Below are positions 943 through 52,815 of a stretch of 64,000 nucleotides of DNA, piece by piece; the stretch's first letter is position 1; every line of letters starts with the position of its first letter. Origin of the DNA: Escherichia coli. GTDB taxonomy: Bacteria; Pseudomonadota; Gammaproteobacteria; Enterobacterales; Enterobacteriaceae. The notes below the pieces were generated by a model. The model worked only from the letters and a program-made list of their open reading frames with translations, searched no databases and was not told the DNA's origin. The position numbers and the translations under genes are program-made. The stretch lies in NCBI RefSeq assembly GCF_029227855.1, contig NZ_CP074356.1. The stretch is one strand, 5' to 3'.

Positions 943-1146
943 ATATGCAATAATTAATTGCACTGCCCCGCCAGCTATAATCGCGGGGCTTCGTTTTTCA
1001 GGGATAACAAAACCCGAAACTTCTTCCATCTGCCAGCAACAATGCCTCTTCCTCTATAGTGTTCTCCGGATCTACAGCATCCTGAAGTAGCGCGATGTAC
1101 TCACGGGCTATCTGCTTCAGAAAGTAAAAAGCAATGTTTTTAACCT

Positions 1147-1180
1147 ATAAAAATGGCGCTGCATTTGCGCCATTTTTATT
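1147..1180. terminator. Bidirectional intrinsic terminator between convergent ykgJ and yagU
   Basis: Hairpin AAATGGCGC-loop-GCGCCATTT flanked by A-run and T-run. Confidence 0.5.
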
Positions 1181-1190
1181 ATTCAATGCA

Positions 1191-3853: not shown

Positions 3854-6048
3854 AATTTGATAAACCCGCAGGGGAAAACCCGATCGATCAGCTGAAGGTT
3901 GTCGGTCGTCCCCATGACCGCATCGACGGACCGCTGAAAACTACCGGCACGGCACGCTACGCCTACGAATGGCATGAAGAAGCCCCCAACGCCGCCTATG
4001 GTTATATCGTCAGTTCCGCCATTGCCAAAGGACGCCTCACCGCCCTTGATACGGACGCCGCGCAAAAAGCGCCGGGCGTACTGGCTGTCATTACCGCCAG
4101 TAACGCTGGGGCACTCGGCAAAGGCGACAAAAACACCGCCAGGCTGTTAGGCGGCCCCACTATTGAGCACTATCATCAGGCCATTGCGCTGGTAGTGGCT
4201 GAGACCTTCGAACAGGCGCGAGCGGCGGCCTCGCTGGTGCAGGCGCACTATCGCCGTAATAAAGGAGCTTACTCCCTGGCGGACGAGAAACAGGCCGTCA
4301 GTCAGCCGCCGGAAGACACGCCCGATAAAAATGTTGGTGACTTTGACGGGGCTTTCACCTCCGCTGCGGTAAAGATTGATGCTACCTACACGACCCCGGA
4401 CCAGAGCCATATGGCGATGGAGCCGCATGCCTCGATGGCCGTCTGGGATGGGAATAAGCTTACCCTCTGGACCTCAAATCAGATGATTGACTGGTGCCGC
4501 ACCGATCTGGCAAAAACGCTGAAAGTGCCCGTGGAGAATGTGCGTATTATCTCCCCGTATATCGGCGGAGGGTTTGGCGGCAAGCTGTTCCTGAGAAGCG
4601 ATGCGCTGCTGGCGGCCCTCGCCGCCCGTGCGGTGAAACGTCCGGTTAAAGTGATGCTCCCCCGCCCCACTATTCCCAATAACACCACGCACCGCCCCGC
4701 CACCCTTCAGCACCTGCGTATCGGTGCCGACCAGAGCGGGAAAATCACCGCTATCTCACATGAAAGCTGGTCCGGAAACCTGCCCGGCGGCACGCCGGAA
4801 ACGGCGGTACAGCAAAGCGAATTACTCTACGCAGGGGCAAACCGTCATACAGGCCTGCGGCTCGCCACGCTTGATTTGCCGGAAGGGAACGCCATGCGTG
4901 CGCCCGGCGAAGCCCCCGGTCTGATGGCGCTCGAAATCGCGATCGATGAACTGGCGGAAAAAGCGGGCATCGATCCCGTCGAGTTTCGCATCCTGAATGA
5001 CACTCAGGTTGACCCCGCCGATCCGACGCGCCGCTTCTCTCGCCGTCAGCTTATCGAGTGCTTGCGCACCGGAGCGGATAAATTTGGCTGGAAGCAGCGC
5101 AACGCCACACCCGGACAGGTGCGCGACGGGGAGTGGCTAGTCGGCCACGGCGTCGCAGCGGGCTTTCGCAATAATCTGCTGGAAAAATCGGGTGCGCGGG
5201 TTCATCTCGAACAAAACAGCACCGTTACCGTGGAAACGGACATGACCGATATTGGCACTGGCAGCTACACCATTCTGGCCCAGACGGCAGCGGAAATGCT
5301 TGGCGTACCGCTGGAGCAGGTTGCGGTTCACCTCGGCGATTCCAGTTTCCCGGTTTCTGCGGGGTCTGGTGGACAATGGGGCGCGAATACCTCCACCTCC
5401 GGCGTTTACGCCGCCTGTGTGAAGCTTCGCGAAATGATTGCCTCGGCAGTCGGGTTTGATCCTGAGCAGTCGCAGTTTGCCGACGGCAAGATTACCAACG
5501 GTACCCGAAGCGCCACGCTACGTGAGGCCACCGCAGGCGGTAGACTGACAGCGGAAGAGAGCATTGAATTCGGAACACTGAGCAAGGAGTACCAGCAATC
5601 GACCTTTGCCGGGCATTTTGTGGAGGTCAGCGTGCATAGCGCGACGGGAGAAGTTCGGGTCCGACGTATGCTCGCCGTGTGCGCAGCGGGGCGCATTCTG
5701 AATCCGAAAACCGCACGCAGCCAGGTCATTGGCGCAATGACTATGGGCATGGGCGCGGCACTGATGGAGGAGCTGGCGGTAGATGACCGTTTGGGCTACT
5801 TCGTTAATCACGATATGGCGGGGTATGAGGTGCCGATTCATGCGGATATCCCAAAACAGGAGGTGATTTTCCTGGATGATACCGACCCCATCTCCTCCCC
5901 GATGAAGGCCAAAGGTGTCGGTGAGCTGGGCCTGTGCGGCGTGAGCGCGGCTATCGCCAACGCGGTGTATAACGCCACCGGTATTCGGGTACGGGATTAT
6001 CCCATCACTCTGGATAAGCTGCTCGATAAACTGCCGGATGTGGTTTAA
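3850..6048 (+). CDS. paoC: Periplasmic aldehyde oxidoreductase, molybdopterin-binding subunit PaoC
   Basis: 732 aa xanthine dehydrogenase-family Mo subunit; coupled to paoB. Confidence 0.9.
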
Positions 6049-16316: not shown

Positions 16317-16478
16317 GAAACTGATTTTCGCTATTAATAATCAGGGTATTTTTGCGTGAGATGTCGGTAAACATGATGTAGCCCTTGCCACTCATGACCA
16401 ATCGCAGTATCTTTCTCCCGCGCCTGCAAAATCAGGCGTCGGGATTAGCCTCCTGAAGAAATCTTATCGGCGACACAT

Positions 16479-16500
16479 GACGCGCCAGCGTCTTTTTTTG
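16479..16500 (+). terminator. Possible intrinsic terminator downstream of the nitrilase ORF
   Basis: Short GC hairpin GACGC-GCCA-GCGTC followed by T7. Confidence 0.3.
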
Positions 16501-16662
16501 TGTTGTTCGCACGGTTACATCTCAATGGTGGGCCGGGCGGGGGCGTCGCAAGACGCGCCAGTGTCCGATAAGGCTGGTAAGGCTAACCCTGCCCGGTTCC
16601 ACCACCCGCGAGATTAGCCTCTCCGGTGGTGGCTTGAACACCCACTTATCGGAGGTTGCCCT

Positions 16663-17496: not shown

Positions 17497-17572
17497 TGGT
17501 GCCGATAAGAGGAGTCGAACCTCCGACCTTCGCATTACGAATGCGCTGCTCTACCAACTGAGCTATATCGGC
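17497..17572 (-). tRNA. thrW: tRNA-Thr, anticodon CGU
   Basis: 76-nt cloverleaf GCCGATATAGCTCAGTTGGTAGAGCAGCGCATTCGTAATGCGAAGGTCGGAGGTTCGACTCCTCTTATCGGCACCA with encoded CCA; anticodon loop CATTCGTAATG. Confidence 0.9.
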
Positions 17573-48646: not shown

Positions 48647-48773
48647 CGCGAATACCTTCCCCCATCGCGGAAATGGATTTTCCGCCTGATTCACAATCCT
48701 TTGTTTTTGATTATAAAAATTCCCGGCACGCTTATTGCACATTCCGCAAAGTAATAAAGACTGGAAGCCACCT

Positions 48774-49703
48774 ATGAGTTTTATTGAATGTTACGAACCG
48801 GAATACGTGCGCAATTTTATGACGCAATATCCCGATTCGCCTTTGTACATCCGCAAGGTGTGGAAAAACGAGATTCGCCAGAGCCTGATGCTGACAGAGC
48901 CAGAAAGCTGCGAAGCGGTGCTCAACGATGCCAGGGCCTTTGATTTACAGCTCACCTACCGCCCGGCGGAAGATAATGCCGCAGAACTCTCCGCGCGCGA
49001 TGCGATAGTAAACCAGGTCATTTTGAGCACCCTTACGCTCCCCGATTTACCCCCGGAGCTTTCACTGTACGCCGTCGGGATTTTGCTCTCCCGCGCCAGC
49101 AAAATGCCGGGCAGAGACGGAGATATTCTTGCCCGCTTGACGACGCTGCCACAGGCGCTGGCCGCTCATGCACAAAAAGGCACGCTACAGGCACAGTTCG
49201 CCCAGTTGCCGCCTGTACCACAGCTGGCGCGCCAACTGGTGACGCTGCTCGGCAGTTGTGCGTTTGACTGGTCGATTCTGCCGGAAAGCCCGCGCAAAAC
49301 TTCCCTGCCGTTGCAGATGCCTTTGCTGGCGCTACATGACGCCAACAGCGAAGCCCTGTTGCAACAGCAGCTTCAGGCACAGTGGCAAACCACCTGGCAA
49401 CAGCATTTTGCCACCGCGCCCTGGATGATGTGTAACTGGCTGATTTACCGCGTTTACCATGAGGTGATTGGACAGGCAGACGGAGCAGATTATTGCCCGC
49501 TGGTGTGCGATTTTTATTTTATCCGCACGTTAATCAGTTTATGGACGCTGGATGGTTCTCCGCTGCGGAAGGAGGATATTTTCGCCCTTTTTGCGGTGTT
49601 TGAACGCTGGCGAGAGAGTGAAAATGCGCTGTTTATTCGCCAGCAAATTCAGTCGTTATGTGCCGCCGACCCGCTGCTTTCAGCGTTTTCGCTGCTGACG
49701 TGA
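48774..49703 (+). CDS. Flag-2-associated hypothetical protein
   Basis: 309 aa from MSFIECYEPE with RBS GGAAG; no recognisable domain; track ORF starts at 48735. Confidence 0.5.
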   Translation: MSFIECYEPEYVRNFMTQYPDSPLYIRKVWKNEIRQSLMLTEPESCEAVLNDARAFDLQLTYRPAEDNAAELSARDAIVNQVILSTLTLPDLPPELSLYAVGILLSRASKMPGRDGDILARLTTLPQALAAHAQKGTLQAQFAQLPPVPQLARQLVTLLGSCAFDWSILPESPRKTSLPLQMPLLALHDANSEALLQQQLQAQWQTTWQQHFATAPWMMCNWLIYRVYHEVIGQADGADYCPLVCDFYFIRTLISLWTLDGSPLRKEDIFALFAVFERWRESENALFIRQQIQSLCAADPLLSAFSLLT

Positions 49704-49720: not shown

Positions 49721-49751
49721 CCCCTCGCCCCTTCGGGGAGAGGGTGAGGGG
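49721..49751. repeat. GC-rich imperfect palindrome (CCCCTCGCCCC..GGGGAGAGGGTGAGGGG)
   Basis: Shares the GGGGAGAGGGT..GAGGGG motif, in inverted orientation, with the element at 59434-59472. Confidence 0.4.
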
Positions 49752-49809
49752 CAAAGCACGCACAGCCCTCCTTACCCATCAAATTAACCCCTTAACTCAC
49801 CTAAACACC

Positions 49810-52281
49810 ATGCCAACACCAACCCTCATCAAAACACTCGCCACTCACCGCGAAAAACCGTTCGTCAGCGTCGTCACGCCCACATGGAACCGTAGCGCAT
49901 TCCTGCCGTACCTGCTCTATATGTACCGCTATCAGGATTACCCGGCAGACCGCCGCGAACTGGTCATCCTCGACGACTCGCCGCAAAGCCATCAACACAT
50001 CATCGACCGCCTGACCAATGGCACACCGGAAGCCTTTAACATCCGCTATATTCATCACCCGGAAAAACTGCCACTGGGCAAAAAACGCAACATGCTCAAC
50101 GAACTGGCGAGCGGCGAATACATCCTCTGCATGGACGATGACGACTACTACCCGGCAGATAAAATCTCTTACGCCATCGCCATGATGCAAAAACACCGGG
50201 CGCTCATCTCCGGTTCCGACCAGATCCCCATCTGGTACAGCCACATCAATCGCATCTTCCAAAGCCGCAGCTTTGGCTCACATAACATCCTCAACGGCAC
50301 CTTTTGCTATCACCGTAACTACCTGAAAAAGCACCGTTACGACGATGATTGTAATTTAGGCGAAGAGAAAAGTTTCACCAACAATTTCAGCGTTAACCCG
50401 CTACAACTGCCCGGCGAGCGCACGATTCTGTGTATCTCGCACAGTCACAACACCTTTGATAAAGATTTTATTCTCGGGGCTAGCACGCCAGTAAACGCGG
50501 CGCTTACGGATATCGTCCGCGATCCGCTGCTGCGCAATGCTTATCTGAGTCTGCATAACGCCACTCATCACCAGGCGATCGATCAGGTCGTACTGATCAA
50601 TCTGGATAAACGCCCGGATCGCTTACAGCAGATCCGTGAAGAACTCACATTGCTGTATATTCCGCCTGAGAAGATCACCCGCCTTGCCGCCAGTGAAAAT
50701 GAAAACGGTCAACGGGGTCGCCGCCAGTCACACTTGCAGGCGCTGCGCCTGGCGCAACAGCACGGCTGGCAAAACTACCTGCTGCTGGAAGATGACGCAG
50801 TTATTCTCAAGCAGGAGAAACATATTCAGGTACTGAACACGCTGCTCGCGAGCCTGGCGAAAATTCCCTGGCAGGTGATGATCCTTGGCGGCGAAATTTC
50901 GCAGGGAACGATGCTAAAAAGTTTGCCGGGGCTGGTGCACGCGCGGGACTGCCGCAAAGTGTGCGCTTATCTGGTGAACAGTCGCTACTACCCGCAACTG
51001 GCGCAGCAGATGAGCCACAATGAACACTCGCTGGAAGACGGCTGGCAGCCGCTGCTACGCGCCGACAAATGGCTGGCCTGTTACCCGAGCCTTAGTTATC
51101 AGCGACCGGGCTTTAGTGATATCGAGAAAAAAGTGACCGACAACATTGCTCACTATTTCAATAAGTTACCCGTTATCACAAAGCCATCCGCATTACCCAT
51201 CGCCGACACCATCGGCTTTTTTATGGAAACCTCCTTCCACTACGCGCTCTACCGCCCAATCATCACTGCTCTACAGGTGCAGGGGCAGAGCTGCACGCTG
51301 GTGATCAATGACCGCGTGTTTAAACCGTTTCTTGATGAGATGCTGGAAACACTGAAAAACATCGACGATCCGCAGCTTAAAGGAATGCGCTTATCTGAAA
51401 TGCAGGCACACGGTCAGCGGGTGAAATGCCTGGTCAGCCCCTACCACACGCCCGCGCTCAATGGCCTGGCAGCGGTGAACGTTCGCGCCATGTACGGCTT
51501 AGCCAAAGAGACGTGGAACCACGCCGACTGGAACCGTTTTTATCAACGCATTTTGTGTTACAGCCACTACAGCCAGCGGGCGCTGGCGCATTTCGGCAAT
51601 GCAAAAGCAGTCGGCAACCCGCGCTTCGACGCCTGGCATAACGGCACGTTTGCCCGCACTCTGCCGGAAAATATTCAACCCGATTCCCGTAAACCTACGG
51701 TGCTCTATGCCCCCACGTTTGGCGCATTAAGCTCCCTGCCCCACTGGGCAGAAAAATTAGGCCGCTTAAGTGGCAATGTGAATCTGATTTGCAAACTGCA
51801 CCACGGCACCTGCTCGCGCCCGGAAGAAGCGGCATCGCTGGCCCTGGCGCGCAGGCATTTAAAACAGCGCACCGACTCCGCCCGCCACACGCTGGCGCTG
51901 CTGGCAAAGGCCGATTACGTGCTGACCGATAACAGCGGCTTTATTTTCGATGCTATTCACGTTGATAAGCGGGTGATCCTGCTCGACTTTCCGGGCATGG
52001 CAGCGTTGCTCGACGGTGAGAAAAGTTACTCCACGCCGGAGAGCGCCGATCAGCAAATCCGCGAAATATTGCCGGTGGCTCATGATATGGCAGAGTTGCG
52101 TTACTTGTTGTCAGAGGCGTTTGACTGGGGGGCGGTGCAGGCGCGGCTTACGAAGATTCGCCATCACTATTGCGATGCGTTTATGGATGGCAAAGCGGGA
52201 GAACGGGCGGCGATGGTGATTGTGGAGGCGCTGGCGGACAAGGAATCGTCAGGGATATGTCGATATAATTCGATTTTTTAA
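49810..52281 (+). CDS. Multidomain glycosyltransferase: GT2 domain, GT25-like domain, and C-terminal CDP-glycerol glycerophosphotransferase (TagB/TagF-like) domain
   Basis: GT-A signature VSVVTPTWNR...ILDDSP with a DDDDYY acidic motif; middle LINLDKRPDRL; C-terminal VLYAPTFG (TagF-type YAPT motif); track ORF starts at 49744 inside the GC-rich repeat. Confidence 0.65.
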   Translation: MPTPTLIKTLATHREKPFVSVVTPTWNRSAFLPYLLYMYRYQDYPADRRELVILDDSPQSHQHIIDRLTNGTPEAFNIRYIHHPEKLPLGKKRNMLNELASGEYILCMDDDDYYPADKISYAIAMMQKHRALISGSDQIPIWYSHINRIFQSRSFGSHNILNGTFCYHRNYLKKHRYDDDCNLGEEKSFTNNFSVNPLQLPGERTILCISHSHNTFDKDFILGASTPVNAALTDIVRDPLLRNAYLSLHNATHHQAIDQVVLINLDKRPDRLQQIREELTLLYIPPEKITRLAASENENGQRGRRQSHLQALRLAQQHGWQNYLLLEDDAVILKQEKHIQVLNTLLASLAKIPWQVMILGGEISQGTMLKSLPGLVHARDCRKVCAYLVNSRYYPQLAQQMSHNEHSLEDGWQPLLRADKWLACYPSLSYQRPGFSDIEKKVTDNIAHYFNKLPVITKPSALPIADTIGFFMETSFHYALYRPIITALQVQGQSCTLVINDRVFKPFLDEMLETLKNIDDPQLKGMRLSEMQAHGQRVKCLVSPYHTPALNGLAAVNVRAMYGLAKETWNHADWNRFYQRILCYSHYSQRALAHFGNAKAVGNPRFDAWHNGTFARTLPENIQPDSRKPTVLYAPTFGALSSLPHWAEKLGRLSGNVNLICKLHHGTCSRPEEAASLALARRHLKQRTDSARHTLALLAKADYVLTDNSGFIFDAIHVDKRVILLDFPGMAALLDGEKSYSTPESADQQIREILPVAHDMAELRYLLSEAFDWGAVQARLTKIRHHYCDAFMDGKAGERAAMVIVEALADKESSGICRYNSIF

Positions 52282-52355
52282 ACATGTCGTTGGAATACGT
52301 TTATGCCATCGACATGTTTTAGGGATATGTCGAAAAAACGCGATTTTTTAAACAT
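52251..52355. repeat. Two 35-nt direct repeats flanking a hairpin at the 3' end of the glycosyltransferase gene
   Basis: AGGGATATGTCGA...CGATTTTTTAAACAT at 52251-52285 and 52321-52355; between them the inverted repeat AAACATGTCG...CGACATGTTT. Confidence 0.5.
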
Positions 52356-52410
52356 ATTTAACATAGCCAAACGGCAGACGGCATCATCTTCTCTCACCGC
52401 GGGAATTAAA

Positions 52411-52815
52411 TCAGTAGGTGGCTGATTTACCCCTAATCACCTCAATGATCCCCGTCGTCGATACCGATGGCGTACGGGGAAAATAGACCACCTCACAGAC
52501 ACACGAGAAATCGTCAAACTTCCCCGCCCAGTCATCGCCCATCACCAAAATATCCGCACCGTACCCCCGCAAATACTCCGCTTTCTGCTCCAGCGATTCC
52601 TCCAGAAATACGCCCTCCACGCACGCCAGCCCGGCGATAATCGCCATGCGGTCATCCTGATGGTAAACCGGTGCCCTGCCCTTTTTGGCGATGTTCAAGG
52701 CATCGGACGATACGCCGACCAGCAACCGTTCGCCCAGCGTGCGGGCGCGTTGTAAAAGGCGCAGATGACCGACGTGAAACACATCAAAGGTGCCGAAGGT
52801 GATGACCGTTTTCAT
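52411..52815 (-). CDS. Glycerol-3-phosphate cytidylyltransferase-like protein (TagD family)
   Basis: 134 aa; HxGH nucleotidyltransferase motif FGTFDVFHVGH; directly downstream of lfiJ on the same strand. Confidence 0.7.
   Translation of the reverse strand: MKTVITFGTFDVFHVGHLRLLQRARTLGERLLVGVSSDALNIAKKGRAPVYHQDDRMAIIAGLACVEGVFLEESLEQKAEYLRGYGADILVMGDDWAGKFDDFSCVCEVVYFPRTPSVSTTGIIEVIRGKSATY

Follow-up and report, generated by a model that had tools for sequence, protein, structure and literature searches.

A probable fic operator relic in the Flag-2 flagellar locus of Escherichia coli

Between two convergent genes of the Flag-2 flagellar cluster of Escherichia coli lies an element which consists of two 35-nucleotide (nt) direct repeats and a central hairpin, and the question arises what such an element is. 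It is found in a stretch of 64,000 nt (contig NZ_CP074356.1 of assembly GCF_029227855.1; "the window" in the following), at the end of a glycosyltransferase (GT) gene and facing the end of a cytidylyltransferase (CT) gene. A first-pass annotation, made from the window alone, had considered a terminator combined with a duplication, a small RNA, or a pair of protein-binding sites. Judging from sequence comparisons, the element is very probably an operator array left orphaned when the SoFic-type fic gene downstream of it was deleted between the Flag-2 GT and CT genes, i.e., a relic. It would belong to a known kind, being a decayed autoregulatory operator of a Fic enzyme which bears a helix-turn-helix (HTH) domain.

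The element and the deleted fic gene

The direct repeats at 52251-52285 and 52321-52355, which are identical in 31 of 35 positions and start 70 nt apart, were found as the annotation had described them. A degenerate consensus of the repeat had two matches in the whole window, both being the known copies, and none in 100 dinucleotide-preserving shuffles (0/100). The inverted repeat between the copies has arms of 18 nt each (52280-52297 and 52302-52319), which are 89% complementary; its outer 10 bp, AAACATGTCG/CGACATGTTT, pair perfectly. Homology to fic loci reaches to 52417 and thus past the limits drawn originally (52251-52355).

Fic-linked loci turned up in a search of 5426 complete E. coli genomes with a 271-nt query across the site, where matches with at least 80% query coverage were counted. 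This search also yielded 75–78% matches upstream of a gene for a "protein adenylyltransferase Fic" of 358 amino acids (aa), and relatives at 75–84% identity were present directly upstream of the 358-aa fic in E. coli islands, Pantoea, Cedecea, Klebsiella and Edwardsiella. The encoded protein matches the SoFic equivalog NF046030, contains the domains Fic_N, Fic and a SoFic-like C-terminal winged HTH, and is 100% identical to PDB 9vjc except for the catalytic His. At the fic-linked loci, tandem arrays of a 70-nt unit (2.5 to 8.5 copies) end exactly at the fic ATG; 8.5 units were counted in FORC_069 and 2.5 units in strain S10, Pantoea At-9b and Cedecea, while about 1.5 units precede a fic pseudogene in Pseudomonas silvicola. 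Each unit consists of part A, ATGTCGATAAAA-N5-TTTTTTAAACAT, and part B, ..ACATGTTTAT-N3-ATCGACAT.., and comprises four half-sites of one motif, ATGTCGA or its complement TCGACAT, with TAAACAT and ATGTTTA as degenerate forms. The spacing of the half-sites in the arrays (orientations given as > and <) is > N15-16 < N11-12 > N3-4 < N11 > N15 <.

The window element has the same composition. Unit 1 part A (A1), which is repeat copy 1 (52251-52285), contains half-site S1, ATGTCGA, at 52257-63 and S2, TAAACAT, at 52279-85; the invariant alignment columns are the half-sites, and S2 includes the GT stop codon. Unit 1 part B (B1; 52286-52320), the former "central hairpin", contains the degenerate S3, ACGTTTA, at 52297-303 and S4, TCGACAT, at 52309-15. 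Unit 2 part A (A2), or repeat copy 2 (52321-52355), contains S5, ATGTCGA, at 52327-33 and S6, TAAACAT, at 52349-55. The six half-sites alternate in orientation between ATGTCGA and TCGACAT or degenerate TAAACAT; two copies of ATGTCGA and one of TCGACAT are intact, the variant TAAACAT occurs twice, and S3 is the most degenerate. The 10-bp hairpin noted previously is site S2 plus GTCG paired with S4. All sites, S1 to S6, match 12 fic-linked arrays column for column, and the layout is equal in distant taxa.

At the orthologous site the gene still exists in some strains. A pattern scan (see below), for which one genome per species was used, gave the loci of Pseudocitrobacter faecalis DSM 27453 (L095) and of a metagenome-assembled genome labelled Pseudocitrobacter (L105), where a 2.5-unit array and an intact 358-aa fic lie between GT and CT; the flanks are 87–95% identical to the window on both sides. 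An array with intact fic between the same GT and CT genes was also present in nine complete E. coli genomes, e.g., EC1515, EC974, UCPROB-001/002, 4FM and AHM8C212RI. In the window, ATT at 52356-52358, the first bases of unit 2 part B (B2), is joined to internal fic sequence; the junction marks a loss of about 1.0 kb, in which the promoter-bearing B2, part A3 and most of fic disappeared. The following 52359-52396 (+ strand) is a coding remnant corresponding to Fic residues ~316-327, with 34 of 36 positions identical to L105 6841-6876 (tblastn placed residues 316-327 at 52360-52395; the EC1515 counterpart is 4443-4478). A second remnant, 52399-52417 (+ strand), represents the last 19 nt of fic with its TAG stop (52415-17); P. 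faecalis, L105 and EC1515 have this 3' end, GCGGGAATTAAATCAGTAG, in identical form. A second deletion of about 75 nt separates the two remnants. These scraps, the second of which has the fic stop, identify the window allele therefore as a fic deletion remnant. Directly downstream of the window array no fic open reading frame (ORF) exists, only the scraps, whereas P. faecalis, L105 and EC1515 have one at the corresponding place; no fic homologue was found in the rest of the 64-kb window. Both junctions are common to E. coli 042, isolate AHB5 and the window, and therefore the deletion event happened once. Taken together, the two deletions left A1-B1-A2 and the two scraps.

Comparison of homologous Flag-2 loci, which had been suggested as a check, was decisive. 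The repeats were present in 107 of the 5426 complete E. coli genomes, i.e., in about 107 of roughly 1245 genomes which bear Flag-2 (the latter number was obtained by subtraction); they were absent from the other Flag-2 loci sampled, where the alignment ends at window position 52234. In E. coli O111:H- 11128, GT ends with ...EALG* and a bacterial interspersed mosaic element (BIME) of repetitive extragenic palindromic (REP) sequences fills the gap; a BIME occupies this intergenic spot in most Flag-2 loci sampled. It resembles the window element in being palindromic, repeated DNA and an alternative filler between the same convergent genes, but its sequence is unrelated, GC-rich and dispersed genome-wide, whereas the window element is rich in AT, occurs once and is linked to fic. 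E. coli is thus polymorphic at this site, having an intact fic, a fic remnant or BIME only. A fourth allele was seen in E. coli AHM8C212RI (L129 1342-2839), where two hypothetical genes and a frameshifted TagD fragment are situated between GT and the array with fic; the region was therefore remodelled more than once.

Orphan or decaying copies occur elsewhere. Besides the fic pseudogene of P. silvicola, an array without fic follows hipBA in Citrobacter youngae, and in Photorhabdus and Halomonas multi-site clusters were present with no fic detectable. Loss of fic with survival of the operator appears to be a repeated outcome. In C. youngae ATCC 29220 the orphan array has 1.5 units (L053 4735-4845) and lies directly after the hipBA pair; the sequence past TAAACATAT contains ..ACGGCATCAGCC.., which is reminiscent of the fic scrap in the window.

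Candidate operator and promoter architecture upstream of fic

Genome-wide scanning with the pattern TCGACA-N10-18-TGTCGA-N12-18-WAAACAT, by which three motif elements are present by construction, gave 120 loci, of which 41 had a SoFic homologue (45–96% aa identity) in the locus. The 41 loci belong to Gamma-, Beta-, Alpha- and Deltaproteobacteria, Verrucomicrobiota, Lentisphaerae and Bacteroidota. Among the loci inspected, the match was situated directly upstream of fic, and half-sites were present beyond those which the pattern demanded. These extra sites, the -35 and -10 boxes and a sample selected by protein constitute the independent evidence. The latter sample comprised 10 plasmid loci, with protein similarity as the sole criterion of choice; of the Fic proteins at 53% identity or more, 5/5 had the architecture upstream, and of those at 41–47%, 1/5. 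More distant Fic proteins with winged HTH (42–47% identical to E. coli Fic; L136, L137, L138, L139) had no ATGTCGA sites, but other repeated palindromes upstream; on an Azotobacter salinestris plasmid (L138 ~470-570), for example, CCTATGCA/TGCATAGG occurs four times upstream of fic. This suggests subfamily-specific operators, for which co-evolution of operator and winged HTH would account. When 15 enterobacterial arrays were aligned, nearly every invariant column lay in the half-sites and the flanking A/T tracts, and the spacers varied.

For the promoter, which was not part of the scan pattern, the 41 loci were anchored on site 4. The -35 box conformed to TTGACA (T24 T30 G27 A38 C29 A29; counts out of 41) and the -10 box to TAnnnT (T36 A38 T27 n n T33). 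The 17-nt spacer is a tight palindrome, tgtcgat-nnn-atcgaca, and the -10 box ends 33–35 nt ahead of the ATG in most of the loci. Of the B units, only that nearest to fic is a sigma-70 promoter, with TTGACA or GTGACA at -35; it lies about 35–75 nt upstream of the fic ATG. Independently, a promoter scan tool reported GTGACA-17-TATGAT in EC1515. An earlier candidate within the A units, -35 TCGACA and -10 GATAAA, was dropped, since the TTGACA/TAnnnT pair flanking the tight palindrome is better conserved. A Shine-Dalgarno sequence was not seen before the fic ATG, which follows directly on, or overlaps with, the last half-site TAAAC(AT). The only B unit of the window, B1, reads GGAATA-17-TGTTTT at the promoter positions, and within 52251-52355 no promoter-like site was called by the scan; the nearest call, TTAACA-18-CATCAT at 52358-52387, is inside the fic scrap. 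With the promoter-bearing B2 deleted, the window is therefore without a fic promoter.

Which protein would bind the half-sites? No neighbouring gene was conserved across the inspected fic loci, and therefore Fic itself is the only co-inherited candidate. In FORC_069, an HTH gene of HipB type upstream of fic was considered as the source of the binder and rejected, as it is not conserved beside fic in other taxa. Two other observations concern this strain: its fic array (L002 1018-1606) has a super-period of 140 nt with 96% identity, and a second, unrelated tandem array of three 59–60-nt copies (L002 204-379) lies upstream of the HipB-like gene. Fic dimers would bind the half-sites via their C-terminal winged-HTH domain and, when bound, would repress their own promoter in the manner of CccR. 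This Fic-HTH protein of Yersinia pseudotuberculosis represses, as a dimer, its own promoter via inverted repeats near -35 and -10 (PMC9755527). From the conserved sites and by analogy with CccR, we infer with good reason that Fic is binder and autorepressor. The pair of protein-binding sites in the annotation was thus the closest of the options, although the sites form clusters of operator half-sites, whose owner would be the deleted fic and neither GT nor the flagellar operons.

The operator PcccR (PMC9755527) has in common with the fic arrays a class II Fic protein with C-terminal HTH, a dimer, widely spaced half-sites in inverted repeats over its own -35 and -10 boxes, and repression. It differs in its motif, AGATAATCAT-N26-ATGATAATCT, and in its single pair of sites, compared to at least six half-sites of the ATGTCGA type, often tandemly amplified, in the fic arrays. 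CccR and SoFic are only ~29% identical, and in the window the gene itself is gone; the CccR motif was absent from 52200-52450, and the resemblance is in mechanism only. Dimers of SoFic, but not monomers, are reported to bind, sequence-specifically, the first 100 bp upstream from the ATG (bioRxiv 10.64898/2026.07.09.737422, July 2026). The fragment bound (Suppl. Table S2 of the same preprint) reads ...TAAACATGTTTTCTTTACATGTCGATTGAATCGACATAAGCTC...TATTATGTCGATAAAAGAAGGTTTTTTTAAAC[ATG] and has equal sites and promoter geometry. This fragment, F1 of Shewanella oneidensis SoFic (mloA, SO_4266), belongs to a member of the same family, NF046030, and contains the same half-sites, TTTACA-17-TAAGCT, and TTTAAAC before the ATG; it differs in being a single set of sites and not a 70-nt tandem array, and the window copy has neither gene nor promoter. 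A published definition of this operator motif was not found in the literature searched. There is also a likeness to toxin-antitoxin promoters with multiple palindromic operators, where the gene of a toxic enzyme is kept low by its own product on repeated palindromes. Fic differs by having no separate antitoxin; inhibitory helix and DNA-binding domain are in one polypeptide.

Alternative explanations and present function

Could the hairpin be a Rho-independent, possibly bidirectional terminator between the convergent GT and CT-fliJ transcription units, with the repeats being incidental? The position would suit it, and the hairpin is stable on both strands (minimum free energy of the whole region -29.5 kcal/mol on the + strand and -39.7 kcal/mol on the - strand, z about -3). 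However, the stem lacks a following U-tract on both strands (UAGGGAU on the + strand, AAAAAAUCG on the - strand), the site was not called by a terminator scan, the stem is often broken in homologous arrays, and most of the sampled Flag-2 loci have a BIME instead of the element. This explanation is therefore unlikely. The duplication which the annotation had coupled with it was not borne out either, as the repeats are not a local duplication of the GT 3' end: Tandem Repeats Finder did not report them in the window, and the 70-nt period is evident only in the fic-linked arrays. Predicted folding which is better than that of shuffled sequences could also point to a small RNA or a cis-acting RNA structure, e.g., a 3'-untranslated region element of the GT mRNA. 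This must be regarded as very unlikely, since there was no Rfam match at gathering score (only noise at E ≤ 10) and no promoter-like site was called for such an RNA. Over 15 homologues, helix 2 was only 70% paired, and compensatory changes were not in excess, with 3 pairs changed on both sides compared to 2.8 in shuffles; moreover, all stems reuse one 7-mer, as expected of protein half-sites and not of a defined RNA fold.

A self-propagating repeat, such as a miniature inverted-repeat transposable element (MITE), a REP-like sequence, or a mini-array in the style of clustered regularly interspaced short palindromic repeats (CRISPR) with 35-nt repeats and a 35-nt spacer, is brought to mind by the 35/35/35 layout and by the related copies in other genomes. 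It is extremely improbable, as remnant-carrying genomes have a single copy, all other copies are tied to fic, and terminal inverted repeats or a target duplication were not seen. A CRISPR-like array would consist of two repeats only, with a "spacer" that is homologous across species, in a neighbourhood of flagellar and glycosylation genes and no cas genes; the flanking fic scraps show, furthermore, that the element arrived with fic. Up to nine "places" per genome, which had raised the question of a dispersed repeat or MITE, appear to be shifted alignments to multi-unit fic-linked arrays, such as the 8.5 units of FORC_069. Finally, the orphan array could be a working platform, to which a SoFic-type Fic from islands or plasmids binds in trans as a roadblock or decoy, and which thereby links the Flag-2 glycosylation genes with a mobile Fic. 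Indeed, none of the six half-site positions is vacant, fic genes of SoFic type are in circulation on islands of E. coli and on Salmonella plasmids, and the remnant is 96% conserved among strains. Yet a second array was lacking in the 11 remnant-carrying genomes sampled (JNEC-KY178 and 10 others, with one array-like place each), the sites have neither a promoter nor a regulated gene downstream, as both neighbours end here, and the similar orphans in C. youngae and at the pseudogene locus of P. silvicola suggest recurrent simple decay. A working platform is thus quite unlikely. The same holds for two broader proposals: that the array is a retained docking site for a horizontally acquired SoFic-type Fic (from islands, IncF or pESI-like plasmids), which would tune read-through or convergent transcription at the genes for flagellin glycosylation, or that the 70-nt arrays are recombination hot spots which would drive repeated gain and loss of fic cassettes at this site. 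Taken together, these have a low probability.

Several points weigh against the origin of the element as a fic operator and against its being a relic. The preprint on SoFic (bioRxiv 10.64898/2026.07.09.737422) localises binding to 100 bp, defines no motif and contains no transcription test. The loci ascertained by the pattern hold, as said, three motif elements by construction. In Pseudomonas folii (L073 3290-3400) and Malikia spinosa (L079 2770-2870), a cluster of half-sites lies immediately downstream of the fic stop, and the region upstream of fic is GC-rich and has no sites, for which the model of autoregulation offers no explanation. That the window strain has no SoFic-type gene elsewhere was deduced from the lack of a second array, no proteome search having been made. 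Between strains, the remnant is conserved (101/105) to about the same extent as flanking DNA (96.3%, window compared to 042 over 1501 nt of mostly coding sequence), which gives no sign of relaxed constraint. As to the orphaned fic operator array, the remnant is most likely without function at present. Its only visible effect is a short, strain-variable C-terminal tail of GT, which exists because the GT stop codon was mutated from TAA to TCA.

Setting in the Flag-2 locus and biological meaning

The region matches E. coli JNEC-KY178 with 100% identity and the Flag-2 locus of strain 042 with 96%; the site belongs to the E. coli Flag-2 variable region VR1, which lies between lfiJ and lfgN and has been described as a hot spot for cargo and glycosylation genes (PMC6993521). 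The GT ORF (49744-52281, + strand; 845 codons, GT2 domain) ends with ...ADKESSGICRYNSIF*; as had been annotated, its last ~10 codons and the stop (TAA, 52279-81) are inside repeat copy 1. The last 16 codons depart from the common allele. In P. faecalis, a TAA stop stands immediately before the array, where the window codon at 52249-51 is TCA; owing to this mutation, the GT ORF of the window reads on into copy 1. Tails of GT are accordingly EALG* in O111, EALVGRKP* in P. faecalis, ...SSGICR* in 042 and ...SSGICRYNSIF* in the window. On the other side, the gene for a TagD-like glycerol-3-phosphate cytidylyltransferase (52411-52815, - strand; TGA stop at 52411-13) overlaps with its last codons the retained fic 3' end. 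Beyond CT follow fliJ, fliI, fliH and fliG, also on the - strand, with GT on the + strand; the location between convergent genes of the flagellar cluster was thus correctly recognized in the annotation.

Some observations were made on the surroundings. Upstream of GT, an ORF of 322 aa (48735-49703, +) shows weak similarity to FliB, the flagellin lysine-N-methylase (NF038110, 43 bits, under the cutoff); its counterpart in EC1515 is annotated as lysine-N-methylase. Matches at Rfam gathering score in the window (985-1185, -; 16420-16609, +; 17500-17572, -) were to IS009 RNA, isrK and C4 antisense RNA, and tRNA; the isrK/C4 pair beside a tRNA hints that an island, P4-like or of a prophage, lies upstream of Flag-2. 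The Flag-2 gene flgC (lfgC) of E. coli 042 is annotated as frameshifted (L001 670-1103).

An odd arrangement of repeat, hairpin and repeat can now be explained as a scar: VR1 of Flag-2 formerly carried a fic gene as cargo, and the remnant accounts for the variable C-terminus of GT. Across several phyla, the upstream region of SoFic-type fic genes appears to have one architecture, namely a promoter TTGACA-17-TAnnnT with the palindrome ATGTCGAT-N3-ATCGACAT in its spacer and with flanking half-sites, and this coincides with the fragment reportedly bound by SoFic. As a by-product, a candidate operator and promoter model at the level of base pairs is available for the autoregulation of SoFic-type Fic proteins, which should be directly testable. 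The window itself would provide a natural operator allele without promoter, which could be used as a control.

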